From NCBI GenBank assembly GCA_019313915.1, contig JAFDAJ010000001.1:33369-97368 (forward strand): a stretch of DNA of 64,000 nucleotides, in the 5' to 3' direction. Shown here one piece after another: positions 15,801 through 43,320 of the stretch (position 1 is its first letter; each line of letters starts with the position of its first letter). The notes under the pieces are model-generated. The model was not told where the DNA came from and made no database searches. It was given only the letters and a program-made list of their open reading frames with translations. The stretch is from Deltaproteobacteria bacterium (GTDB lineage: Bacteria; Myxococcota_A; Polyangia; Polyangiales; Houyiibacteriaceae). Position numbers and translations under genes: made by a program.

Positions 15801-16339
15801 CACCCTCCCTCCGTGAGCACCGCCCGATCTGGCCCGGCAGCGTCTATCCAAACGTCGAGGCGTGCACCCGCGTCCATTTCGATGGCACGGCCGACGAAGT
15901 CCGGTGCGATTGGAAGCTCGCGGCCCCCGCGATCACAAAGCGCCGCAAGCCAAATTCGCGCTGGGCGCCCGTGGTCCTGCAGGCACTCGATGGCCGCACG
16001 CACTGTGCGCCCCGTGTGGAGCACATCGTCGACCAGCACGACGTGTCGGCCGTTCACTTCGAACGGGATGTCGCTCGGCCCTATCTTGGGGTTGGGAAGC
16101 GCCGTTGCCGCATCATCGCGATAGAGTGAAATGTCGACCGTCCCCACCGGCGGCGGCCTGCCCTCGACCTTCGCAATCTCGTCTGCGATGCGCATCGATA
16201 GCGCGACCCCGCCGCGACGAATGCCAACCAAAGTCAGGTCTTCGATGCCCGATGTCGCTTCCAGAATCGCAACAGCAATGCGTCGAATGCTCCGTTGGAT
16301 AGCGTCCGCATCGAGTACGACCTTCTGGGTTCGAGCCAC
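15800..16339 (-). CDS. pyrR: Bifunctional pyrimidine operon regulator/uracil phosphoribosyltransferase PyrR
   Basis: Carries the PRPP-binding motif [13 protein letters not shown]. The start is trimmed to the GTG giving (V)[21 protein letters not shown], which aligns with the B. subtilis PyrR N-terminus MNQKAVILDEQAIRRALTRIA. The ORF-track start at 16402 would add 21 unmatched residues. Confidence 0.88.
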
Positions 16340-16379
16340 GTTCGGCGCAGTGTGTGTGAAAACACCGTGCGCTTCAAGC

Positions 16380-17153
16380 CTAGGCGACCGACAGGCCCCC
16401 ATCGATGGTAACCAGGCTTCCCGTTTGCCAAGTTTGATCGAGCACGTTGATGATGACAGCGGCGATTTCCTCAGGCTTTCCGAGCCGGCCCAAGGGATGC
16501 AAAGCTGCCAGCGCCGCGAGCTGGGTCTCGACCCGCTCGTCGAGCTGCGCTGCAGTGAGAGACTCGCCTGGGCGCAGGCGCGGGGTACGCAGCATGTCGG
16601 TATCCACGCCGCCTGGCAGCACCGCGTTCACCCGCACGCCGGCGGAGGCGAGCTCGAGAGCAAGACCTTTGGTGAGCGTATTCAGGGCGGCCTTGGTCGC
16701 TGCGTAGACCACCGTCGTACGTGCAACGCGCTCGGAGAGCGTGCTCGAGACGTTGACGATCGACCCTCCCCGGCCACGAAGATGCTCTGCGACCGCTTGC
16801 GACATCAGAAGCGGCGCGACCAGGTTGACGCGCACCTGAGCCTCGATCGATTCGAGGGTGATGGCCCCAACTGGTTCGTAGCTGGCGATCCCGGCGCAGT
16901 TCACCAATCCGTCGACGGACCCAAACGCGTCGATCGCGCGCTTCGCCGCCTCGGGGACACGAGCCACGTCCTCGAAGTCCACGGACACCGTCCGGACACG
17001 GTCTGCCGCGGACGCTTCGAGCGCCCCTAACGCCTCCTGGTTGCGCGCGATCGCGACGACCTTCCCGCCGCGCGACAGGATCGCCTCGACCGTCGCGCGT
17101 CCAATGCCGCGAGTCGCGCCAGTGACGATAACAGTGCCTTCAGAAACTGTCAT
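16380..17153 (-). CDS. Short-chain dehydrogenase/reductase (classical SDR)
   Basis: Carries TGATRGIGRA (cofactor binding), NAG (NCAG) and the catalytic YAATKAALNTLTK (YxxxK). It starts at MTVSEGT, immediately after the stop of the upstream FolB-cupin gene. Confidence 0.85.
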   Translation of the reverse strand: MTVSEGTVIVTGATRGIGRATVEAILSRGGKVVAIARNQEALGALEASAADRVRTVSVDFEDVARVPEAAKRAIDAFGSVDGLVNCAGIASYEPVGAITLESIEAQVRVNLVAPLLMSQAVAEHLRGRGGSIVNVSSTLSERVARTTVVYAATKAALNTLTKGLALELASAGVRVNAVLPGGVDTDMLRTPRLRPGESLTAAQLDERVETQLAALAALHPLGRLGKPEEIAAVIINVLDQTWQTGSLVTIDGGLSVA

Positions 17154-17154
17154 C

Positions 17155-17901
17155 TCAACCCAAGCCCGCAATCGGACCCCAGGGTGGCTCGGCCGGAACG
17201 TCGGCCGGTTCCCCGCTCACCTCAATCTCGTCCTCAGGAATGAAGCGGGGCAAGTCGACGCAGAGGATGCTCTGGTGCCGGTCGGTCGGATTCGTGTAGG
17301 TGTGCGCGGCGCCCCTCGGCCATCGGTGCACCGTCCCGGGCGCGCACGGCTGCCCCTGACACAGCAGCCCGTCGCCCAACACCATCTCGGACTCTCGCAT
17401 CTGCTGATGCACGTGAAGCGGGATGCTCTTGCCGGAAGCGACGTTCAGACGGTAGATGCCGGCGCCCTTGGTCTCGTAGATCACGTCGACGGTACCGAAG
17501 GGCTTGGTTTCGACCTCGACGTTGCACCATGCGGCAGTGCGCTCGATCTCGAGCGAGGGTACCGCGAAGCCACGCAGAGCGCCGGGCTTGGTGAGACGGA
17601 CGACTGCGGAGTCGACCTGAGCGCGGCGCTCGTCGGGCGCGGGAGGTGCGAGGAGATACCGAGCGAGCACGTGCCCAGCGGTTTCGAGCAGACGGAAGCG
17701 GCAGCTGCGCAAGAGGAACACCATCTGCGACGCAGTCGCGGCGTAGTCGATCGTGGAGCGCAGACTCTCCTTGACCGCCGACGTTTCGGTTTGCAGACGC
17801 ATCTCGACGTCGACGCGGAGCGGCTGCGAGGCGTTGCGCTCGTGCGGGTACACCCCGACGACGCAGTCGACCGTCAGCTCCTCGATGCGCAGGACATCCA
17901 T
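17155..17901 (-). CDS. Dihydroneopterin aldolase (FolB/FolX)-like domain fused to a C-terminal cupin domain
   Basis: The N-terminal half is collinear with E. coli FolB: GVYPHER vs GVYDWEQ, DYAATA vs SYADIA, LLETAG vs LVERVA, and RLTKPGA vs KLSKPGA. The C-terminal half has cupin motif 1 (near match, GKSIPLHVHQQMRESE) and a perfect cupin motif 2 G(X)5PXG(X)2H(X)3N (GTVHRWPRGAAHTYTN). The start is uncertain, either M at 17901 or M at 17952. Confidence 0.75.
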   Translation of the reverse strand: MDVLRIEELTVDCVVGVYPHERNASQPLRVDVEMRLQTETSAVKESLRSTIDYAATASQMVFLLRSCRFRLLETAGHVLARYLLAPPAPDERRAQVDSAVVRLTKPGALRGFAVPSLEIERTAAWCNVEVETKPFGTVDVIYETKGAGIYRLNVASGKSIPLHVHQQMRESEMVLGDGLLCQGQPCAPGTVHRWPRGAAHTYTNPTDRHQSILCVDLPRFIPEDEIEVSGEPADVPAEPPWGPIAGLG

Positions 17902-17950
17902 GCGACCAAGGCTATCCCATTTCGAGACTTCTGCTAGAGTCCCGCCTTCC

Positions 17951-19306: not shown

Positions 19307-20188
19307 GTGATCATGCTACATATGACGACATCTGCAGCGGTCGCGGCGAGGATAGAGCAACAGCCACGGGAGGCAGCCCCCTTCGTGAAGTGGGTCGGGG
19401 GCAAGGGCCGATTGCTGAGCCAGCTGCGACCGCTGCTCCCTTCGGGGGTAGAGCACATGCGCCACGTCGAGCCATTCGTCGGCGGTGGCGCGCTCTTTTT
19501 TTCGCGCCGCCCTGGGCGAGCGCTGCTGACCGACATCAACCGGACCCTCGTGGCGACGTACTCAGTGGTCCGCGATGACGTCGAAGACGTGATCATGGCG
19601 TTGCGCCGACTCGCCGGCCGCCACTCCAAGGAGAGCTACTACCAGGTGCGCGAACGGTACAACCAGAGCGGTCGCGTTTCAACCTCGAAGCGGGCGGCGA
19701 TGTTCATCTACCTCAACAAGACCTGTTTCAACGGATTGCACCGTGTGAATCGCAAAGGCGAGTTCAACGTGCCGGTCGGCTCGTACAAGAGACCGCGAAT
19801 CTTGAACGAAGAGGGTCTGCGCGCGGCCAGCCGCGCGCTCAGAGATGCCGAACTCGAGTGCGCTCCGTTCGATGCGCTGCTCGAAAACGCAAAGCCCGGC
19901 GACTTCGTCTACTTCGACCCGCCCTACGAGCCCGTCTCGCAAACCGCGAGCTTCACATCCTACGCGCGCGACGGCTTCTCCCGAGAAGACCAAACGCGCT
20001 TGCGCGACGTGTACAAAGCCCTCGACCGTCGAGGCTGCAAGGTCATGCTCTCCAACAGCGACGTCCCCTTCATCCACAGCCTCTATGGCAAGTTCAACAT
20101 CGACATCGTAGCCGCCCCCCGGGCCATCAACTGCGACGCCAAGAAGCGCGGAAAAGTGAGCGAGCTCGTAGTCCGCAACTATGCGTAA
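19307..20188 (+). CDS. Dam-family (alpha-class, D12) N6-adenine DNA methyltransferase, no cognate nuclease adjacent
   Basis: 293 aa with FVKWVGGKGRLL, motif I VEPFVGGGALFF and motif IV FDPPY, in the Dam motif order. Its GC3-rich codon usage resembles that of its neighbours. The start could be GTG at 19307, ATG at 19313 or ATG at 19322. Confidence 0.88.
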   Translation: MIMLHMTTSAAVAARIEQQPREAAPFVKWVGGKGRLLSQLRPLLPSGVEHMRHVEPFVGGGALFFSRRPGRALLTDINRTLVATYSVVRDDVEDVIMALRRLAGRHSKESYYQVRERYNQSGRVSTSKRAAMFIYLNKTCFNGLHRVNRKGEFNVPVGSYKRPRILNEEGLRAASRALRDAELECAPFDALLENAKPGDFVYFDPPYEPVSQTASFTSYARDGFSREDQTRLRDVYKALDRRGCKVMLSNSDVPFIHSLYGKFNIDIVAAPRAINCDAKKRGKVSELVVRNYA

Positions 20189-20257
20189 GAGGAGTCAGAC
20201 CTCTTTTTGGGCGTGGGCCCCCTTGCCAAGAACCGCAAACCGCGAGACGGTGCGCCG

Positions 20258-21259
20258 ATGCAGCCCCACACCCCGCCCCTACTGCTGTGCCTCTGCTATC
20301 TTGCTGCCTGCAGCCAACAAGCTGAGGTGGCGAAAATCACGCCCACCATGTCGCATTCGTTCGAGTCCCTCACAATTGACGCGGGAGCGGAGATCAGCGA
20401 CCTCTGCCAGAGTTGGACGTTAGACAACGACGAACCGCTGTACGTAGCCAAGATACGACAGCGCAACGACGGCGCGTGGCATCACTCGAATTGGTTCTTC
20501 GTCCCTGAGAGCGAGTATCCAGGCCCCGACGGCACTTGGGACTGCGACGAGCGGGGCTTCCATGACGTTGCGGCGGCGTTGGCCGGAGGCGCCTTCTTCG
20601 CGCAGTCCACCCAAACCTTCCAAGAGCTTCAAGCCTTCCAGGAAGGCGCCGTCCTCGAAATTCCGCCGCGGCACAAAATCGTGGGCGGCGTGCACCTCGT
20701 AAACGTGTCGGCGGGCGCTCTCGATACCGCGCTCAGCTTCGACATCGAGACGGTCCCCGAGGAAAGCGTTCGAGTGCGACTCCGTCCCATCGCATTCACC
20801 AACACCGCACTCGACATCGAGCCACAGGCGGAGTCGCGATTCGGAATGACGTGCGACATCGGAATCCCCTCCGATTACAATATCTACTACGTTCTGGCGC
20901 ACTACCACGAGTGGGGAAATTATTTCCGGCTCAGCTTCGTCGACGAGGATGGAGGCGATCGAACGATCTTCGAACTGAGCAACTCGATCGGAGAACCGCT
21001 CGGCATCACGCTCGATCCGCCGATCAACTCACGAAACGCGTCGAAGCTACGTGTTGAATGCGGCTACATCAACGACACCGACCAGCCTCTAACTTATGGG
21101 CTGGCTGGCCATGAAATGTGCGTGTTCCTCGCCTACAGCGACGCCGACTACAAGATCGGCGCGTCCTCGGGAGACAACACCGCGATGGGCCCAAACGAAG
21201 ATGGCATATACATGAACGAAACCGCCTGCGGCGGTGTGCTCGCGGTCCCGGCCCCGTAG
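20258..21259 (+). CDS. Lipoprotein resembling copper type II ascorbate-dependent monooxygenases (PHM/DBH family)
   Basis: Carries a lipobox signal peptide, MQPHTPPLLLCLCYLAAC|S. The ligand pattern is HH (WHHSNWF), H (GGVHLVN), HxH (AHYHEWG) and M (GHEMCVF) at roughly 70-residue intervals. TWDCDERG matches PHM YWFCDEG. Confidence 0.7.
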   Translation: MQPHTPPLLLCLCYLAACSQQAEVAKITPTMSHSFESLTIDAGAEISDLCQSWTLDNDEPLYVAKIRQRNDGAWHHSNWFFVPESEYPGPDGTWDCDERGFHDVAAALAGGAFFAQSTQTFQELQAFQEGAVLEIPPRHKIVGGVHLVNVSAGALDTALSFDIETVPEESVRVRLRPIAFTNTALDIEPQAESRFGMTCDIGIPSDYNIYYVLAHYHEWGNYFRLSFVDEDGGDRTIFELSNSIGEPLGITLDPPINSRNASKLRVECGYINDTDQPLTYGLAGHEMCVFLAYSDADYKIGASSGDNTAMGPNEDGIYMNETACGGVLAVPAP

Positions 21260-24121: not shown

Positions 24122-24197
24122 GGGTTGGGGCTAACGGTTGGCGCCGCCTCCGTCAAGCATTGGCGTCCTAACGCTGGGGGGCTACGCTCTTCTCTGC

Positions 24198-25097
24198 ATG
24201 GCACGGGCTCAACGACGCCACACGGAGGCGGGGAAGCGCGCCGACCAGCGTTCCACGCGCGTGCTCTGGGGCGGGCTGCTCGCTGGCGGTCTCATCGCGG
24301 TTGGCATCGCGCTCGCGCCGGGCTTCCGCGAGCCCGCCGAAGAAACCGTCGCCCCGGTAGACATCACGCCAAGGGAACCCGCTCTCCCCGCGGCGGCCCC
24401 AGAGGTCGAGGCGCTTCGCGTGCGCGTCGTTCGTAAGTACCCGCACGCGGCGGACGCCTTTACGCAAGGGCTCATCTGGCACGAGGACGCGATGTACGAG
24501 AGCACCGGCCAATACGGGCGTTCTTCGCTCCGCAAGGTCCGGCTCGAGGACGGCAAAGTGCTCGCGGAGCGCAAATTGGAGTCGCGATTCTTTGGCGAGG
24601 GCCTGGCACGTGTCGACGATCGCTTGATTCAACTCACCTGGCGCGCGGGCCTCGCGTTCGTGTCGGACCTGACGACCCTCGAGGAGCACAAAGCTCTCAG
24701 CTACAGCGGCGAGGGTTGGGGCCTGTGTTACGACGGGACGGCGCTAGTGATGAGCGATGGCTCCTCGATGTTGGAGCTCCGCGACCCGGAGTCGATGGCG
24801 CTACTCGGCGAGGTAACTGTATTGAAGAACGGACATCCCGTGCGGAAGCTCAACGAGCTCGAGTGCACAGGCTCGGAGGTCTACGCCAACATCTGGCAAA
24901 GCAACGAAATCCTGCGCATTGACCGCAAGAGCGGGCGCGTCACTGCGACGATCGATGCAAGCGGTTTACTGTCGCGCAGCGAAGCAAGGCGCGCCGACGT
25001 TCTCAACGGGATCGCTTACAAGCCGGAGTCGAAGACGTTCTTGCTCACGGGCAAGCTCTGGCCTCATGTGTTCGAAGTCGAGCTCGTGCCCCGCTGA
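24198..25097 (+). CDS. Glutaminyl-peptide cyclotransferase (plant/bacterial beta-propeller type)
   Basis: Carries YPHAADAFTQGLIWHEDAMYESTGQYGRSSLRKV...FGEGLARVDDRLIQLTWR...NELE...IYANIW, typical of the Glu_cyclase_2 family. The start is trimmed to MARAQRR, ahead of a signal-anchor helix. Confidence 0.8.
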   Translation: MARAQRRHTEAGKRADQRSTRVLWGGLLAGGLIAVGIALAPGFREPAEETVAPVDITPREPALPAAAPEVEALRVRVVRKYPHAADAFTQGLIWHEDAMYESTGQYGRSSLRKVRLEDGKVLAERKLESRFFGEGLARVDDRLIQLTWRAGLAFVSDLTTLEEHKALSYSGEGWGLCYDGTALVMSDGSSMLELRDPESMALLGEVTVLKNGHPVRKLNELECTGSEVYANIWQSNEILRIDRKSGRVTATIDASGLLSRSEARRADVLNGIAYKPESKTFLLTGKLWPHVFEVELVPR

Positions 25098-26014
25098 TCT
25101 CGGGCATGCACCTCGATCACGGGATCCCACTTCGCGAGCCTCGTACGCATGATCGCGATCGCGTCTGGACTCTCGTCGATGAGGACGAAGCCTCGGCCAA
25201 GACGCGCGGCCGCCTCACCGGTCGTTCCGCTCCCGGCAAAGAAGTCGAGTACCGTGTCCCCGGGCTCCGTGTGCACCTTGATGATGCGCTCGAGCACGCC
25301 CAACGGCTTCTGCGTGGGATACCCGGTCTTCTCCTTGCCATTCGTCGGCACGATGGTGTGCCACCACACGTCGGTTGGCGTCTTGCCGCGGGCGGCTTTC
25401 TCTTTCCCCACGAGCCCCGGCGCCATGTACGGAATGCGATCCATCTCATCGAACTGAAACACGTAGCGCTTTGGGTCCAGGACGTACCAAAGCAGGGTGT
25501 CGTGCTTGGCCGGCCACCATCGCTTCGGACGCCCACCGAAATCATACGCCCAAATAATCTCGTTTCGAAAATGATCCCTGCCCAAGAGTCGGTCCAGCGC
25601 GACTTTCACGTAATGCACTTCTCGATAGTCGAGATGCACGAACAGTGACCCATCGGGGGTCAGGCACGGCAGCGCGGCTTCGATGCGGCTCATCAGGAAT
25701 GGAATGTACGAATCGAATTCGTCTTCGTAGGTCGGGCTGTCGATCGGCTCGACATCGTAGCGCCGGCCGCCAAAGCCCCGTCGCTCACCCTCCTCGGCCA
25801 CCCGCACCTGCATCCTCTGGCGGGACTGCTTGCGTCCCGTGTTGAACGGCGGATCGATGTAAATCAGCCGCGCAAGCTCGCGCGGGAGCGTCTCGAGGAC
25901 CTCCAAGTTGTCACCCTGCACGATTCGGTTCACACGGCCGAGCCTATCATCCGCAGGTGAGTGCGCCCATCCTCGAACCCGCTTGCAGCGCCGCAGGGGT
26001 CGCTCTACGCTCAC
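25064..26014 (-). CDS. Beta-class N6-adenine DNA methyltransferase (N4/N6 MTase family), no cognate nuclease adjacent
   Basis: Motif IV IDPPFN comes before motif [15 protein letters not shown], which is the beta-class order. [12 protein letters not shown] is also present. The natural start may be the GTG giving [13 protein letters not shown] at 25933. The 3' end overlaps the convergent cyclase gene by 34 nt. Confidence 0.85.
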
Positions 26015-26019
26015 GGTCG

Positions 26020-26220
26020 ATGCAACTCGTGGTCAACGGCGAAGAACGGCAGGTCGGGCCAAGCATGACCGTGAAGCAACTGCTCGCCTCACTCGGCCTG
26101 GCAGACACGTTGGTCGCTGTAGAGCGCAATGAAGAAGTCGTTCCGCGCGCACAACACGAGAGCACAGGGCTCAACGAGGGCGACCGGGTCGAAGTAGTCC
26201 ATTTCGTAGGAGGTGGTTAG
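26020..26220 (+). CDS. thiS: Sulfur carrier protein ThiS
   Basis: 66 aa from [12 protein letters not shown] ending in the ubiquitin-like ...HFVGGG C-terminus. It lies directly upstream of thiG. Confidence 0.85.
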
Positions 26221-27018
26221 GTGTCCGAAGATGTCCTGAAGATCGGCAAGTTCGAGTTTCGTTCGCGTTTGTTCACGGGGACGGGCAAGTACCCGGATCT
26301 CGACACCGCCAGGGGGGCGTTGAAAGCGTCGGGCTGCGAAGTCGTCACGGTCGCAGTGCGCCGCGTAGATCTGAAGGCGACGGGCGCCGATTCGATCATG
26401 ACGGTTCTCCGCGAAGGCAACTACACGCTCCTTCCAAACACCGCCGGGTGCTACACGGCCGAGGACGCGCTTCGCACCGCGCGGTTGGGGCGGGAGCTGC
26501 TCGACACACCGCTGGTCAAGCTCGAGGTAATCGGCGACGAAAAAACTCTCTTCCCCGACGTCCCCGCGACGCTCGAAGCCGCCAAAGTACTCGTGGACGA
26601 GGGATTCATCGTTCTGCCCTACTTCAACGACGACCCAATCGCCGCGCGTCGCCTGGAGGATCTGGGTTGCCCGGCGGTCATGCCCCTCGCTGCACCGATC
26701 GGCAGTGGGCTCGGCGTTCGCAATCCCTTCAACATCGAGATCATCGTGAAGCACGCCAACGTGCCGGTCATCGTGGATGCGGGGGTCGGCACGGCGTCTG
26801 ATGCCGCCATCGCGATGGAGCTCGGCGTCGACGGCGTGTTGATGAACACGGCGATCGCTGGCGCGAAAGACCCGGTTCGGATGGCGCGCGCAATGAAGGC
26901 TGGTGTCGAGGCCGGCCGCGATGCATTCCTCGCCGGCCGCATTCAACGCAAGCTCTACGCAACGGCATCGAGTCCGCTCGAAGGCGTCATCGGCTCCGAG
27001 CAAGACGGCCGATCCTAG
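26221..27018 (+). CDS. thiG: Thiazole synthase
   Basis: 265 aa with a GTG start, highly collinear with ThiG ([19 protein letters not shown]..., [35 protein letters not shown]). Confidence 0.95.
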
Positions 27019-27028
27019 CGTCCGGACA

Positions 27029-27667
27029 ATGACCCCAGCTCTTCCGCGGATCTGGATCATTACCGACCCGAGTCATCCCGACGGTCCGGTGACCCCGGTT
27101 CGACGCGCCCTCGAAGGGTGCACGCCTGGCCTGGTGGGCGTGCAGCTTAGGGCTAAGAATGTATCCGATCGCCAACTGGTGACTTGGGGCCGGGAGCTGC
27201 GCGACGTGACGCAGGCCGCCGGCAGCCTATTGGCCGTCAACCGACGGGTAGACGTCGCCCAGATCGTCGGCGCAGACGTCGTGCACCTCCCCGAGCTCGG
27301 CCTCCGCGCGACGGACGTCCGCCACCAATGGCCAACGCCTGCAATCATCGGGGTCTCACGACACGACCGGACAGGCCTCGAGGCTGCCAAGCGCGATCTC
27401 GCGACGTATGCATTCTTGAGCCCCGTCTTCCACGTTCCAGGCAAGGCCCAGCCGATCGGCATCTACGGACTTCGCGACGCGATCGCCAACGTCGGGATTC
27501 CGACATACGCGCTTGGGGGCATTGGAGCCGAGGATTGCAAGGCTGTGCTCGCGACTGGCGCATTCGGCGTCGCAATCCGCCGGGCAATCTACTCGGCGAA
27601 CCAGCCTGGTGAGACCTTACGCCAATTCCTGCGCGCGCTTGACAAGAACCCTGCAAGCGGCGAATAG
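27029..27667 (+). CDS. thiE: Thiamine-phosphate synthase
   Basis: 212 aa from MTPALPRIWIITD, with the ThiE pattern VQLRAK..., VNRRVDVA, GVSRHD, FLSPVF and YALGGI. Confidence 0.88.
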   Translation: MTPALPRIWIITDPSHPDGPVTPVRRALEGCTPGLVGVQLRAKNVSDRQLVTWGRELRDVTQAAGSLLAVNRRVDVAQIVGADVVHLPELGLRATDVRHQWPTPAIIGVSRHDRTGLEAAKRDLATYAFLSPVFHVPGKAQPIGIYGLRDAIANVGIPTYALGGIGAEDCKAVLATGAFGVAIRRAIYSANQPGETLRQFLRALDKNPASGE

Positions 27668-38772: not shown

Positions 38773-39870
38773 CTACTCTGGAGCGCTCATCCAGGCTTGA
38801 AACCGTGGCCAGGCCTCCCCAAGACGCGCCTGGAGATCGGCCACGACCGCCTCCGACTCCGCGACATCCGCGCCGAGCTCTCGCGCCCGCTCGCTGCAGA
38901 CCATCGCCGCCAAGACCTGATCGCGAGCGCCCAACGACCGCGCCAGAAGCGGCAACGCGTCGCGCTCCTCCGCACCGAGCCGGATTGCCCGTCTCAACAG
39001 CCCGATCGCCTCGCCGTGTTTCTCGCTCGCCGCCGACGCGCGTCCCAGTGCCAGGAATAGGCCCCCGGCCTTTCCCGATTCGCCAGCCCATTGAATCCCC
39101 AGCCGCAAGACTTCGTTGGCGGCATCGAGCTCACCCATGTTTGCGTACGCGGTGCCGAGCAGGTCCAGGCTGACTGAGAGCCTGCCGTGGACGTCCTCGC
39201 TGAGACCCTCCGCCTCCCCCGTACGCAGCAGCATGGAAATCGAAGTCAACCAGGGGTTGAGCATCGCGACCGTGGCGCCCCAGTTCCCGTGAGCGTTTGC
39301 GTCTTCCGCCTGGTCTACGATCGCAAGGTCGATCGCGTTGTCGTTCTGCCGGCCGATCCCGAGCTCGGAGCGCACGCGTTCATCGAGGACATCTCTGAAG
39401 TCGTCGAGCCCCAAGACGTGCCGAAGCTCGTTGAACTGGAGCGTGATCTCGGACAGGCCAAGGTCAGCGCGAAGCTCGAGCGGCTCCACCTGGAACAAAG
39501 CGGCTTCGAGCATGTAGCGCCCACCGATGTGCGCCTGCAGCGCCTCGGCATCGGCGTCGTCTGGAAGGCTCCAGCTCTGAAGCGGCGTGAGCAGTGACTG
39601 TCCAATCGTCTCACGGAATTCAGAAAGCGGAACCTGCCGAACCGTGGGGTCCTCACCGATCGAAAACTCCACCGTCGTCGGGCTCTCCGAGTGCGGACTG
39701 GCGGTCAGGCTGACGATGCGCGCGCCGGCAATGAGGGCGAGTCCGAGGGTACTGCGACCGATGAGCTCCGCGGCCTTCTCGAAATCCTCGGACTGTTCGA
39801 GGACCTGCTCGAACCAACCGTCGGGACGCGCGGCAGACAGGTCGTAGGCCCGCGGAGAACCGCCGGCCAT
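38773..39870 (-). CDS. Hypothetical protein with a C-terminal TPR-like helical repeat region
   Basis: 365 aa from MAGGSPRAY, starting 1 nt after the epimerase stop. The C-terminal third is helical and TPR-like (LLGTAYANMGELDAANEVLRLGI..., GEAIGLLRRAIRLG). The N-terminal approximately 220 aa match nothing I recognise. Confidence 0.6.
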   Translation of the reverse strand: MAGGSPRAYDLSAARPDGWFEQVLEQSEDFEKAAELIGRSTLGLALIAGARIVSLTASPHSESPTTVEFSIGEDPTVRQVPLSEFRETIGQSLLTPLQSWSLPDDADAEALQAHIGGRYMLEAALFQVEPLELRADLGLSEITLQFNELRHVLGLDDFRDVLDERVRSELGIGRQNDNAIDLAIVDQAEDANAHGNWGATVAMLNPWLTSISMLLRTGEAEGLSEDVHGRLSVSLDLLGTAYANMGELDAANEVLRLGIQWAGESGKAGGLFLALGRASAASEKHGEAIGLLRRAIRLGAEERDALPLLARSLGARDQVLAAMVCSERARELGADVAESEAVVADLQARLGEAWPRFQAWMSAPE

Positions 39871-39871
39871 T

Positions 39872-40837
39872 TTACGCCTCGCCGCTGAGCTTGCGGCGGT
39901 ACCACTCGATCGTGTTGAGCAGCCCCTCTTCGAGCTCGACATGCGCCCGGAAACCGAGAATCTGCTCGGCCTTCTTTACGTCGGGAATGCGAAGCTCGAC
40001 GTCCGGGAAGTCCCAATCGACGAACTCGATCGCGGACTTGCTCTCGGTGAGGCGAACGATCAGCTGGGCGAGCTGGTAAATCGTGACGGTGCTTCGCGGA
40101 TTCCCGATGTTGAAGCTCTCGCCAACCGCGCCCTCGCGCTGCATGGCGAGGAGGATCGCCTCGACGATGTCGTCGATGTAACACCACGAACGAATCTGAT
40201 CGCCTTCGTTGTGAATGCGAAGGGTTTCGCCCTGGAGCGCCCGCACGACGAACGCGTGGACCGCGCCTTCCCCAACCTGCCCTGGCCCATAGATGTTGAA
40301 CGGGCGAATCGCAACCGTTGGGAGGTTGAACTGCTTCCAGTAATTGTGAGCAAGGTGCTCCGTGGCGAGCTTGCTGACCGCATACGTCCAGCGGGCTTCG
40401 CCGACCGCGCCGAGGCTGGTGACGTCCGCTTCCCGCACGCGAAACGCATAGGAACCAAATACCTCGCTTGTGGAGAAATCGATCACCCGCTTGACGCCTG
40501 TGCAGTCGTGGGCCGCGCGAAGGACGTTCATCGTGCCTTCGAGTGAGACCTCCATCGTCATGACGGGGTTCTTCAAGACCGTGTCGACGCCCGCAATCGA
40601 CGCCATGTGGATGATGTACTCGCAACCGGTGACCGCCCGGCGAACCGCCGTCAGGTCCCGGACGTCGCCGACGACGAGCTCGATGTTCGGATGCCTGTCG
40701 AGGCCGGCGCTCGAAAGCGCGTTTCGCCGTAGGATATCAAGGACCCGGATGTGGTTGTCGTCGGCCAAACGAGCAGCCAACGCGGTCCCGATGAACCCCG
40801 CGCCCCCGGTGATCAGAATGTGCGCCCCCTTCAACAT
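39872..40837 (-). CDS. NAD-dependent nucleotide-sugar epimerase/dehydratase (extended SDR)
   Basis: 321 aa with ILITGGAGFIGTAL, the catalytic YAVSKLATEHL (YxxxK) and RPFNIYGPG. Confidence 0.88.
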   Translation of the reverse strand: MLKGAHILITGGAGFIGTALAARLADDNHIRVLDILRRNALSSAGLDRHPNIELVVGDVRDLTAVRRAVTGCEYIIHMASIAGVDTVLKNPVMTMEVSLEGTMNVLRAAHDCTGVKRVIDFSTSEVFGSYAFRVREADVTSLGAVGEARWTYAVSKLATEHLAHNYWKQFNLPTVAIRPFNIYGPGQVGEGAVHAFVVRALQGETLRIHNEGDQIRSWCYIDDIVEAILLAMQREGAVGESFNIGNPRSTVTIYQLAQLIVRLTESKSAIEFVDWDFPDVELRIPDVKKAEQILGFRAHVELEEGLLNTIEWYRRKLSGEA

Positions 40838-40995: not shown

Positions 40996-43320
40996 GTGAT
41001 GGAACGATTCGTCCTCTGGCACAGGATCCTACCTCCCGCCTTTGAAGAAGAGGAGACGACCGCCGCTGCCGGCCAGTGGGCGCGGTACGTCACCAACGAG
41101 GTGCAAGGTGGCGGCGGCGAGGTGATGTCGTCCCTTGCAGGAACGGTGGTCGCAAACTTCGCGCTTCACGAGCTCAAGACCGCGATCAACCTGGCCCTGC
41201 GTTTGCTCGCCGAGGCCGAGTCACAGCCCGTCCCAACAGGAGGGCTTCCGATTGCTTTCGGCATCGCGAGCGGCGACATTGGACGGGCCGAAGACGACGC
41301 CGGACATCTCACGAATAGCGGTAGCGCGATCGACCGCGCGCAGCTCTTGGCCAACCAGGCGCGCGCCGGTGAAGTCGTGCTCGATGTCGAGTCCCGTGAA
41401 GCCGCCTCGAGGACCTATCTGTTCGGGCGGTCCGTCAGCACGAGCTCCTTTGCATTGCACGGAGAGGCCATCGACCGAAGCCGGCCACTTCTCGAAAAGT
41501 GCCGCCAGTCGGTGGGCCTGCTGCAGCCCGCCCCCATTCCGGCAAGCGTGCGTCATACCCTCGAGCCGATGAAGAAGGCCGCCGCTGGGACGCAGACTTG
41601 CGCGTTCTATTTGAAGGGGGCGCTGGGCGTCGGGGCGCGCGCCGGAGTGTTTGCGCTACGCGACGAGCTCCGACCCCCGGTATTCTTGGAAATCGGTGCG
41701 GTTCCCGGCGGGCTGGAGCCGCTTGGGGGGCTTCGGCTTGCGCTCCTGAAAGCTTGGCGAACGCTCGGGCCGACGCGCAAAGCCTTGAAAAAGACGGAAC
41801 CCGGAGTGGCTGACGCGCTCAAAGCCATCGCTTGCGCGACTCCTCCGCCCCGTGAGGCGACGATCCATGCGCTCAAGGCGACATGCCGCGCGCTGCGGAC
41901 GGAACACGGGCTTCCGTGGATCTACATCGATCGCCTCTCGGCGGTCGATCCGGCAACGCTCGAGGTCCTTGGTGCGGCCCTGTCCGATGACACGGTCGCC
42001 GCGTTGCTGTGCGTCCGAACGACAGAGTCGAGCGTTCCGGCGGGCCTTCGCAGCGTACAGCGGGCGGCAAAGATCGACGTACCTGCGCTCGATCCCAGCG
42101 AAGCGCTAGTGGTGGCTACTGGTATCCTCGGGCCACACGCCAACGCGGAGATCGCCACACAGCTCGTAATCACCGGCGGCACGACGGTGCTCGGAATCAC
42201 CGAAGCCGCGCGAACCATGGTCGCCACTGGAGACCTCGTATACGACGGCGGCACGTTCGTCTGGCGTGACGAGACGGCTGAACGGCGCCAACACATTGGC
42301 CCGCGCGCTCTCCTCGAAGAACGGTTCGCGACGCTCGATACATCATCGATGCGTTTCCTCGAGGTCGCGTGCTCGGCCCTCCCCGCATCGTCTGCACAGG
42401 TTGTCGACGCGGCGGTTGCGCTGGACGGAATACGAGAGAGCACACGGCGCAGAGCCCTCGAGGCCCTGATCAACGATGGCCTCTTGACGCCGCAGGGCAA
42501 GCCCGATTCCGAGCTCCTTCGGAGGGCAGTAGTTCAGCGCATGCCACCCGCGCGCCGGACGGAGGTTTACCGGTTCGTCGCGCACGCGCTTCACACGGCT
42601 GAGCCACTGGTCGGGCCGTCGATGGCGGCCACGGTGGGGGCGTACCTGTGCGAGGGAGGCGACCTCGCGCGCGGCGCCCTCGCGATTCTCGAGGCGGGCT
42701 CCCTTGCCGCCGACAACGGGTACACCACTGCGGCGGTGCGACTGGCTGCCGCCGCAGTTCAGTATCAACCCGACGCGGAGACCCGCGATGCCGCGTCGGA
42801 AATCAGCCGAGCGGTTCGGCTTCCATCGGGACCACCGCTGGACGAAGAAGAGGAGAGGCCGACGATCCCGGTTCCCAACGCGAAGCCAGACGACCCGGTC
42901 GAAGAGATCGTGCGAACGCTCAAGGAAAAGGACCACGACAAGTTCGACACCTTGATCGAATCCTCCATTGCTGCAGGCGGCGACCTCACCGGCGCCCATT
43001 GCCTACGCGTCGTCTCGTACGTGAGTCGTGACGACGTTCGTCGGGCCAAACAAGCCCTAGATGCCGCCAAGAAGAGCCCCAATCAGTCTCCCGGAGCCGC
43101 CATCCGGATTGCAATCGCGTCATCCTGCGTACAACTGGCCCGCGGGCGCGCACGCGACGCGATGATCGATGCACTCGAGGCGCTTGCCGGCGCGCGCGCT
43201 CAACAAGACGGCCCGGGAGAAGCCGCCGCCCTCAAGATGGTGTCGGCGACGTGTCTGGCCGCCGGCCTCGCGAGCGACGCCAACCGGCTCGCGCACGTCG
43301 CCGAAGCGGTCGCTAGCTGA
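40996..43320 (+). CDS. Large cytoplasmic protein with a degenerate class III cyclase-like N-domain, a degenerate AAA_16/STAND-like region and C-terminal helical repeats
   Basis: 774 aa. The N-terminal region GGEVMSSLAGTVVANFA...LALRLL...LPIAFGIASGDIG...GSAIDRAQLLANQARAGEVVLD follows the cyclase homology fold pattern, but the metal-binding FxDxxGFT block is absent. The P-loop position reads LKGALGVGARAG, with no Lys-Ser/Thr. The assignment is by eye only. Confidence 0.5.
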   Translation: MMERFVLWHRILPPAFEEEETTAAAGQWARYVTNEVQGGGGEVMSSLAGTVVANFALHELKTAINLALRLLAEAESQPVPTGGLPIAFGIASGDIGRAEDDAGHLTNSGSAIDRAQLLANQARAGEVVLDVESREAASRTYLFGRSVSTSSFALHGEAIDRSRPLLEKCRQSVGLLQPAPIPASVRHTLEPMKKAAAGTQTCAFYLKGALGVGARAGVFALRDELRPPVFLEIGAVPGGLEPLGGLRLALLKAWRTLGPTRKALKKTEPGVADALKAIACATPPPREATIHALKATCRALRTEHGLPWIYIDRLSAVDPATLEVLGAALSDDTVAALLCVRTTESSVPAGLRSVQRAAKIDVPALDPSEALVVATGILGPHANAEIATQLVITGGTTVLGITEAARTMVATGDLVYDGGTFVWRDETAERRQHIGPRALLEERFATLDTSSMRFLEVACSALPASSAQVVDAAVALDGIRESTRRRALEALINDGLLTPQGKPDSELLRRAVVQRMPPARRTEVYRFVAHALHTAEPLVGPSMAATVGAYLCEGGDLARGALAILEAGSLAADNGYTTAAVRLAAAAVQYQPDAETRDAASEISRAVRLPSGPPLDEEEERPTIPVPNAKPDDPVEEIVRTLKEKDHDKFDTLIESSIAAGGDLTGAHCLRVVSYVSRDDVRRAKQALDAAKKSPNQSPGAAIRIAIASSCVQLARGRARDAMIDALEALAGARAQQDGPGEAAALKMVSATCLAAGLASDANRLAHVAEAVAS

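Follow-up and report, generated by a model that had tools for sequence, protein, structure and literature searches.

The stretch of DNA analysed here, 64,000 nucleotides of contig JAFDAJ010000001.1 from a deltaproteobacterial assembly (GCA_019313915.1) and referred to throughout as the window, carries a gene for a predicted lipoprotein that is, by its fold, its homology and its metal ligands, a member of the superfamily of peptidylglycine alpha-hydroxylating monooxygenase (PHM) and dopamine beta-monooxygenase (DBH). The gene is flanked by a gene for a Dam-type methylase and by convergent MlaF/MlaE genes and lies among housekeeping genes. PHM is the catalytic core of PAM (Pfam PF01082 and PF03712; PDB 1PHM, 1OPM and 1SDW; EC 1.14.17.3), and PHM, DBH and tyramine beta-monooxygenase (TBM) are known from textbooks as enzymes of animals (and algae) and form the paradigm of O2 activation at a non-coupled binuclear copper site. 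In animals, the PHM/DBH enzymes serve in the amidation of peptide hormones and the formation of noradrenaline. Enzymes of this type hold two copper ions about 11 Å apart and use O2 and two electrons to hydroxylate a C-H bond. We propose that the window protein is probably a lipid-anchored envelope protein of the same kind in a myxobacterium of the Polyangiales/Sandaracinaceae type, namely, a non-coupled two-copper monooxygenase that would hydroxylate C-H bonds. The positions of the features discussed are given in Table 1, and residue numbers count from the ATG at 20258.

Table 1. Positions of the PHM/DBH-like lipoprotein gene, its predicted features, other genes of the window and a gene cluster found in relatives
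Feature	Position	Strand	Remarks
Full open reading frame (ORF) from TTG	20207-21259	+	
PHM/DBH-like two-copper lipoprotein gene (predicted), 333 amino acids	20258-21259	+	Stop codon 21257-21259; ORF list, homologues, hhalign, Foldseek
Predicted signal peptide with lipobox L-A-A-C	20258-20311	+	Cys18 codon 20309-20311, predicted lipidated first mature residue
N-terminal jelly-roll domain (about residues 31-166)	20348-20755	+	Strand pattern of the model, hhalign, conservation
CuH-type site: His75 and His76; His146	20480-20485; 20693-20695	+	In the N-domain; WHH on V-H107-H108 and VGGVH on VLQV-H172 of rat PHM
C-terminal jelly-roll domain (about residues 175-331)	20780-21250	+	Alignment to PHM, conservation
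CuM-type site: His215 and His217; Met287	20900-20908; 21116-21118	+	In the C-domain; HYH on H242-T-H244 and EMC on E-M314-C315 of rat PHM
D12-class Dam-like DNA methyltransferase gene	19307-20188	+	
Glu_cyclase_2 (glutaminyl-cyclase-like) gene	24138-25097	+	
N6_N4_Mtase gene	25064-26014	-	
Sizeable ORF without Pfam match at the thresholds used	16131-17030	+	
Sizeable ORF without Pfam match at the thresholds used	17041-17937	+	Overlaps an extended aminotransferase ORF
Sizeable ORF without Pfam match at the thresholds used	26089-27060	-	
Sizeable ORF without Pfam match at the thresholds used	38773-39942	-	
Sizeable ORF without Pfam match at the thresholds used	40996-43320	+	
Example of the five-gene cluster of paralogues	L041:533-7002 (= L090:2806-9053, JBAVOF010000045.1)		All genes on the same strand

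The gene product is predicted to be a lipoprotein

The full ORF opens with a TTG codon, and the in-frame ATG at 20258 agrees with the starts of homologues. From this ATG, the N terminus reads MQPHTPPLLLCLCYLAAC followed by SQQ, with the lipobox LAAC at residues 15 to 18. The true start is uncertain, since homologues favour the ATG, whereas a GAGGAG Shine-Dalgarno-like motif (window 20189-20207), which immediately follows the stop codon of the Dam gene and precedes the TTG by 12 nucleotides, and a basic n-region (KNRKPR) go with the TTG. Upstream of the ATG there is only a weak purine-rich stretch, and the n-region that starts there contains no basic residue. Promoter and terminator scans near the gene gave nothing useful.

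Conservation was assessed in a near set of 28 relatives with 52 to 92% identity to the window protein and a distant set of 61 representatives with 27 to 51% identity (alignment A2). Within the pattern [LVI][ASTVI][GAS]C, which the window protein matches, the Cys is conserved: Cys18 is invariant in all 28 near relatives and present in 56 of the 61 distant ones (alignment counts). The n-regions of the relatives contain M-R, their lipoboxes include LIGC, LVAC and VVAC, and paralogues carry Gly-rich tethers after the Cys. In both structural models described below, the signal-peptide segment has low confidence values and is disordered or helical, as a signal peptide would be. The protein had been called a lipoprotein in a first-pass annotation of this DNA, and as a prediction this is borne out by a lipobox Cys that is shared across the family. 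The protein would thus be lipid-anchored in the cell envelope, either on the periplasmic face or on the surface. The residue at position +2 is Ser; Lys at +2 has been reported as the signal for inner-membrane retention in Myxococcus, so that the Ser may point, with low confidence, to sorting to the outer membrane.

The predicted structure has the PHM/DBH fold

Two AlphaFold2 models were obtained, one from a 28-sequence alignment (predicted local distance difference test score, pLDDT, 85.5; predicted template-modelling score, pTM, 0.81) and one from a 61-sequence alignment (pLDDT 94.1, pTM 0.89), and both show two beta-sandwich domains. When these models were compared with the PDB using Foldseek, the top 31 matches were in both cases solely PHM and DBH structures, with a probability of 1.00, E values of 2e-13 to 2e-10 for the first and 4e-15 to 3e-11 for the second model, and template-modelling (TM) scores of 0.47 to 0.67. 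The fold expected from the first-pass annotation was thus recovered. The highest TM scores were obtained with 6ala_A and 4zel_A, the latter being a closed DBH chain with the highest query-normalised value (0.61 to 0.63, with a root mean square deviation of about 5 Å). Both are "closed" conformers, related to the open form by an 18-degree hinge rotation (PMC6123673), and since it is these conformers that give the highest scores, the moderate TM scores to open PHM are largely a matter of domain orientation.

The next matches were PNGase-like proteins, phage double-jelly-roll capsids and DUF2961 proteins, with E values of 1e-7 to 1e-5 and TM scores of about 0.2 to 0.33. The protein could accordingly be viewed as a PNGase F-like or other double-jelly-roll lipoprotein that binds or hydrolyzes glycans and in which the His/Met pattern is fortuitous, as such folds are common in bacterial lipoproteins and as PNGase F and PHM are placed in one Pfam clan and fold in a survey of double-jelly-roll proteins, where PHM is the clan's eukaryotic branch (PMC8812541). 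The general architecture that the window protein shares with PNGase F and DUF2961 proteins (Pfam clan CL0612 and relatives) is indeed widespread in bacteria (PMC8812541). However, those proteins have no copper sites, and their scores are weaker here, with E values of about 1e-5 and TM scores of about 0.3 for PNGase-like and DUF2961 structures; the matches to PHM and DBH exceed them by 4 to 7 orders of magnitude and extend over both domains, at TM scores of 0.5 to 0.67 versus 0.2 to 0.33. Together with the profile-profile homology specifically to PHM and the strong conservation of the six ligands, both described below, this makes a fortuitous pattern on a glycan-active protein extremely improbable.

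Profile comparison places all six candidate copper ligands on those of PHM

Homology to PHM was assessed with hhalign by comparing alignment A2 with an alignment of 25 animal PHMs headed by the rat catalytic core (A3). The two profiles aligned over 246 columns with a probability of 97.4% and an E value of 1.5e-11, which demonstrates statistical homology, and identity between PHM and the window protein is about 15%. All six candidate ligands were placed on H107, H108, H172, H242, H244 and M314 of rat PHM (Table 1), and the ligands follow one another in the same order in steps of 70, 69 and 70 residues, compared with 64, 70 and 70 in rat PHM. The order and near-equal spacing of the ligands, as asserted in the first-pass annotation, are thereby confirmed column by column. 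The sequences quoted there, namely, the lipobox, WHHSNWF, GGVHLVN, AHYHEWG and GHEMCVF, are all present in the translation, and the residue numbers 92-93, 163, 232/234 and 304 given with them are based on the TTG start and run 17 higher, so that they correspond to H75/H76, H146, H215/H217 and M287. The flanking blocks that had been paired by eye, TWDCDE with YWFCDE, HYHEWG with HTHHLG and EMCVF with EMCNL, were likewise aligned together by hhalign.

Six further cysteines are found in the two domains, Cys50 and Cys96 in the N-domain and Cys199, Cys268, Cys288 and Cys324 in the C-domain. Five of these, C50, C96, C199, C268 and C288, align with C81, C114, C227, C293 and C315 of PHM, Cys288 being part of the EMC motif that both proteins have; the comparison concerns positions only, and C324 lies outside the aligned region. 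The disulfides of PHM include C293-C315 and C227-C334.

Searches with single profiles were marginal. The 61-sequence profile reached rat PHM chains in the PDB with an E value of about 0.7 (HMMER), aligning PHyHelG with VHTHHLG and dqEMC with SDEMC, and in a targeted search, a hidden Markov model of animal PHMs detected distant members of the family at up to 22 bits. Weak matches to PF03712 (Cu2_monoox_C) occur in 18 of the 61 distant members (best E value, 1.4e-4). Precomputed Pfam domains are absent from the 120 closest relatives, and a PF03712 hit is precomputed for one relative (P0481); as another distant relative has a JGI label, annotation pipelines do occasionally glimpse the relationship. 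PDB sequence matches of the window protein to MEMO1 and FabG (E value of about 0.5) were judged to be due to chance.

The predicted metal site is conserved across the family

All six ligands and the six further cysteines are invariant in the 28 near relatives. In the distant set, the ligands are kept in 56 to 58 of the 61 representatives (CuM ligands, 56 to 57) and the six structural cysteines in 60 to 61. Single ligands are missing from a few distant members, which may be degenerate paralogues. This pattern bears on a second alternative, according to which the protein would be a non-catalytic, copper-binding envelope protein on a PHM scaffold that serves in copper buffering or delivery, in sensing or purely in electron transfer. 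The loss of individual ligands in these distant members would fit such a role, as would the presence of several paralogues per genome and the lack of adjacent substrate-related or pathway genes. However, the asymmetric set of three His on one side and two His and a Met on the other, including the Met that is typical of the O2-activating site, is kept down to about 30% identity, which fits catalysis and not storage, and no cop, cus or cue genes were seen in the neighbourhoods that were inspected. We therefore consider a non-catalytic role unlikely.

The predicted substrate pocket departs from that of PHM

In the PHM-substrate structure 1OPM, the carboxylate and backbone of the C-terminal glycine of the substrate are held by R240, Y318 and N316 of PHM. 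In the window protein, Leu213, Val289 and Leu291 take the places of R240, N316 and Y318, and L213 and L291 are invariant in all 28 near relatives. L213 was assigned to R240 by extending the HxH strand without gaps and by reference to the HMMER alignment; this assignment is less certain than the others, as hhalign has a 5-residue gap just before HxH. These replacements suggest a substrate that is not a C-terminal glycine but is more hydrophobic and lacks the carboxylate, and an assay on Gly-extended peptides would probably be negative. The first-pass annotation had seen no obvious substrate for the protein, which agrees with the loss of the PHM anchors.

The same residues speak to the most literal interpretation of the homology, a true PHM that makes amidated peptides in the envelope, possibly with a nearby glutaminyl-cyclase-like gene (see below) as a second peptide maturation enzyme. 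Structurally, the window protein is matched best by PHM chains, and the cyclase gene is found 3 kb away, in an arrangement that recurs at two related loci (L004 and L012). With the anchors replaced and two of the leucines fixed in the subfamily, with the cyclase gene positioned beyond three housekeeping genes on the opposite strand and its linkage confined to the closest syntenic relatives, and with no PAL/NHL lyase gene among the window genes scanned (part of the window), this is very unlikely. A PAL/NHL lyase was also absent from the related loci, and the window protein has a single-domain organization, without a lyase part. As judged from its residues, the protein is not a PHM orthologue.

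Nearly all relatives come from myxobacterial genomes

Among 5.8 billion proteins searched by word index, 1310 relatives had an E value of at most 1e-3, and these form more than 1300 clusters at 90% identity. The best 120 of the 1310 are full-length proteins with 54 to 93% identity, all of them unnamed or designated "hypothetical protein." When 1.84 billion representatives were searched exhaustively with a profile, 752 clusters at 50% identity were obtained, 296 of them at an E value of at most 1e-10. Given this many homologues, the gene is real and under purifying selection. When one genome per GTDB species was considered, 146 loci were found to encode relatives (alignment A1). Almost all of the loci listed are in metagenome-assembled genomes labelled Polyangiales, Sandaracinaceae, Myxococcales, Myxococcota or "delta proteobacterium," often with 3 to 4 loci per assembly, and there is a cultured carrier, Sandaracinus amylolyticus (P0422, CP070225.1).

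Two loci, L031 and L077 (CAXMND01), bear the label "uncultured Coxiellaceae bacterium," while the other carriers are all Myxococcota. The label is probably due to mis-binning or mislabelling and does not indicate a true presence in Gammaproteobacteria. Candidates for canonical PHMs in bacteria were rejected: the weakest matches of a search with rat PHM, P0386 and P0388, have eukaryotic-type genes on their contigs (REX1B and, downstream, an NHL gene) and are probably PAM proteins of picoeukaryotes. The full-text literature, in which subscription journals are thinly covered, yielded no account of a PHM/DBH-like family from bacteria, so that this is absence of evidence only.

Some relatives are associated with a cytochrome-like domain

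Relatives with a length of 505 to 570 amino acids (P0130, P0131, P0136, P0140, P0146, P0150, P0165 and P0185) have an additional C-terminal domain of about 130 amino acids with the pattern PSC-x4-CH(G/D)...GLDL...(H)MP...WI..GA. This domain resembles PSCyt1 of Pfam (Planctomycete cytochrome c), and its C-x4-CH motif differs from the usual CxxCH. It may be a heme c module that is fused to the copper enzyme.

A group of paralogues with 50 to 57% identity to the window protein is encoded in a conserved five-gene cluster at about 22 loci. The cluster consists of genes for two lipoproteins of about 590 to 665 amino acids, a YceI-like protein, a 217-amino-acid lipoprotein and the PHM-like lipoprotein and is followed by a convergent ychF gene. 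The two large lipoproteins begin with the same PSCyt1-like domain (hhalign probability, 85%), which is followed by a double jelly roll that is PHM-like but divergent (hhalign probability to the family, 93%; E value, 2.8e-7) and in which HH, H and HxH are kept and the Met position is occupied by Thr. By association, and with the window gene not directly involved, this suggests that modules resembling c-type cytochromes supply electrons in the myxobacterial family. YceI proteins bind isoprenoids or lipids, and the YceI-like protein in the clusters is a hint at hydrophobic substrates, again by an association seen in relatives and not for the window gene.

The genomic neighbourhood of the window gene is conserved only in close relatives

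Besides the flanking genes, the surroundings of the window gene include genes for an aminotransferase, an alanine racemase, a glutaminyl-cyclase-like protein, an N6/N4 methylase, PurQ/PurL, SMC and others. Only the closest relatives, with at least 78% identity (L004, L005, L007, L008, L012 and L035), have the genes in this order, and relatives with about 75% identity are found in unrelated contexts, leaving the window gene without a conserved partner. A function deduced from an operon was therefore rejected.

The Glu_cyclase_2 gene is set apart from the lipoprotein gene by the three opposite-strand genes for MlaF/MlaE and alanine racemase. It echoes the maturation of animal peptide hormones. 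Two stand-alone DNA methyltransferase genes, of the D12-class Dam-like and N6_N4_Mtase types, lie within 6 kb, and no restriction enzyme was recognized among the neighbours scanned. The window also contains several sizeable ORFs without a Pfam match (Table 1), some of which may be spurious ORFs that result from the high GC content, for instance, the one that overlaps the aminotransferase ORF.

Discussion

The data presented here make it likely that the window protein is a two-copper monooxygenase-type enzyme, while any particular substrate can be named only with low confidence. After processing by Lgt and LspA, Cys18 would tether the protein to the surface or to a membrane on its periplasmic face. 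The N-terminal jelly roll would hold the electron-transfer copper (CuH) on His75, His76 and His146, which would accept single electrons, and the C-terminal jelly roll would hold the O2-activating copper (CuM) on His215, His217 and Met287, with the two sites opposed across the cleft between the domains. Two single electrons would be taken up, O2 would bind at CuM, and hydrogen would be abstracted from a substrate held in a cleft that is more hydrophobic than that of PHM, yielding the hydroxylated substrate and water. Ascorbate is unlikely to be the reductant. Given that the PSCyt1-like C-x4-CH domain is fused to some relatives or encoded beside them, the electrons more likely come from a redox protein of the periplasm, for instance, a c-type cytochrome.

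Several observations weigh against this proposal. The window protein itself has no Pfam match even at an E value of 10, including to the two PHM models Cu2_monooxygen (PF01082) and Cu2_monoox_C (PF03712), for which a match would have been expected from the first-pass annotation and whose gathering thresholds it does not reach, and it has none in NCBIfam. Judged by the HMM test put forward in the first-pass annotation alone, the assignment would have failed. A phmmer search of the PDB with the window protein gave nothing relevant, and the 28-sequence profile found only antibody fragments there (E value above 0.2). Q170 and Y79 of PHM are not conserved in the family. The match of the additional domain of the long relatives to PSCyt1 is weak, at 17 bits with a cut-off of 22. 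No copper-handling, cytochrome or substrate-related gene adjoins the window gene, and a search of the window revealed neither a paralogue nor a PSCyt1-like domain, so that the proposal of a cytochrome-like electron donor draws on the relatives. As Pfam is negative for the protein and gives only weak matches for 18 of the 61 distant relatives, we regard the protein as belonging to a separate family of the PHM/DBH superfamily, outside the current Pfam models.

Compared with PHM, the proposed two-copper monooxygenase has the same two jelly rolls in about 300 residues and the same ligands. It differs in being bacterial and anchored as a lipoprotein, whereas PHM is located in the lumen of secretory granules, and, as detailed above, in its sequence below Pfam thresholds, its pocket, the lack of a PAL partner and the unlikely use of ascorbate. 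With DBH, TBM and MOXD1, it shares the catalytic double-jelly-roll core and the ligand set; unlike these proteins, it is bacterial, has neither a DOMON domain nor a C-terminal dimerization domain and is 333 rather than about 600 amino acids long. The fold and the metal site were thus already known, while the phylogenetic home, the lipid anchoring, the substrate pocket and probably also the electron supply are new.

A wider and rather doubtful extension of the proposal would be that these proteins form a large, hitherto undescribed myxobacterial radiation of the superfamily, periplasmic and ascorbate-free, which obtains its electrons from dedicated C-x4-CH cytochrome-like domains, either fused or alongside, and hydroxylates hydrophobic molecules of the envelope or secreted molecules, with lipids or isoprenoids being suggested by the YceI clusters. 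Such a radiation might represent the prokaryotic stock of the eukaryotic neuropeptide and catecholamine enzymes.

In summary, we describe a bacterial branch of an animal enzyme class that has kept the whole metal site and dropped the peptide-binding residues. The family offers a small, prokaryotic and probably ascorbate-independent model in which the disputed long-range electron transfer and the open/closed mechanism of these enzymes could be addressed, and the cultured carrier S. amylolyticus makes it experimentally approachable. It also bears on the origin of the eukaryotic PHM/DBH-type enzymes. Since myxobacteria are prolific makers of natural products and sterols, the family may represent new C-H hydroxylation chemistry in these bacteria.

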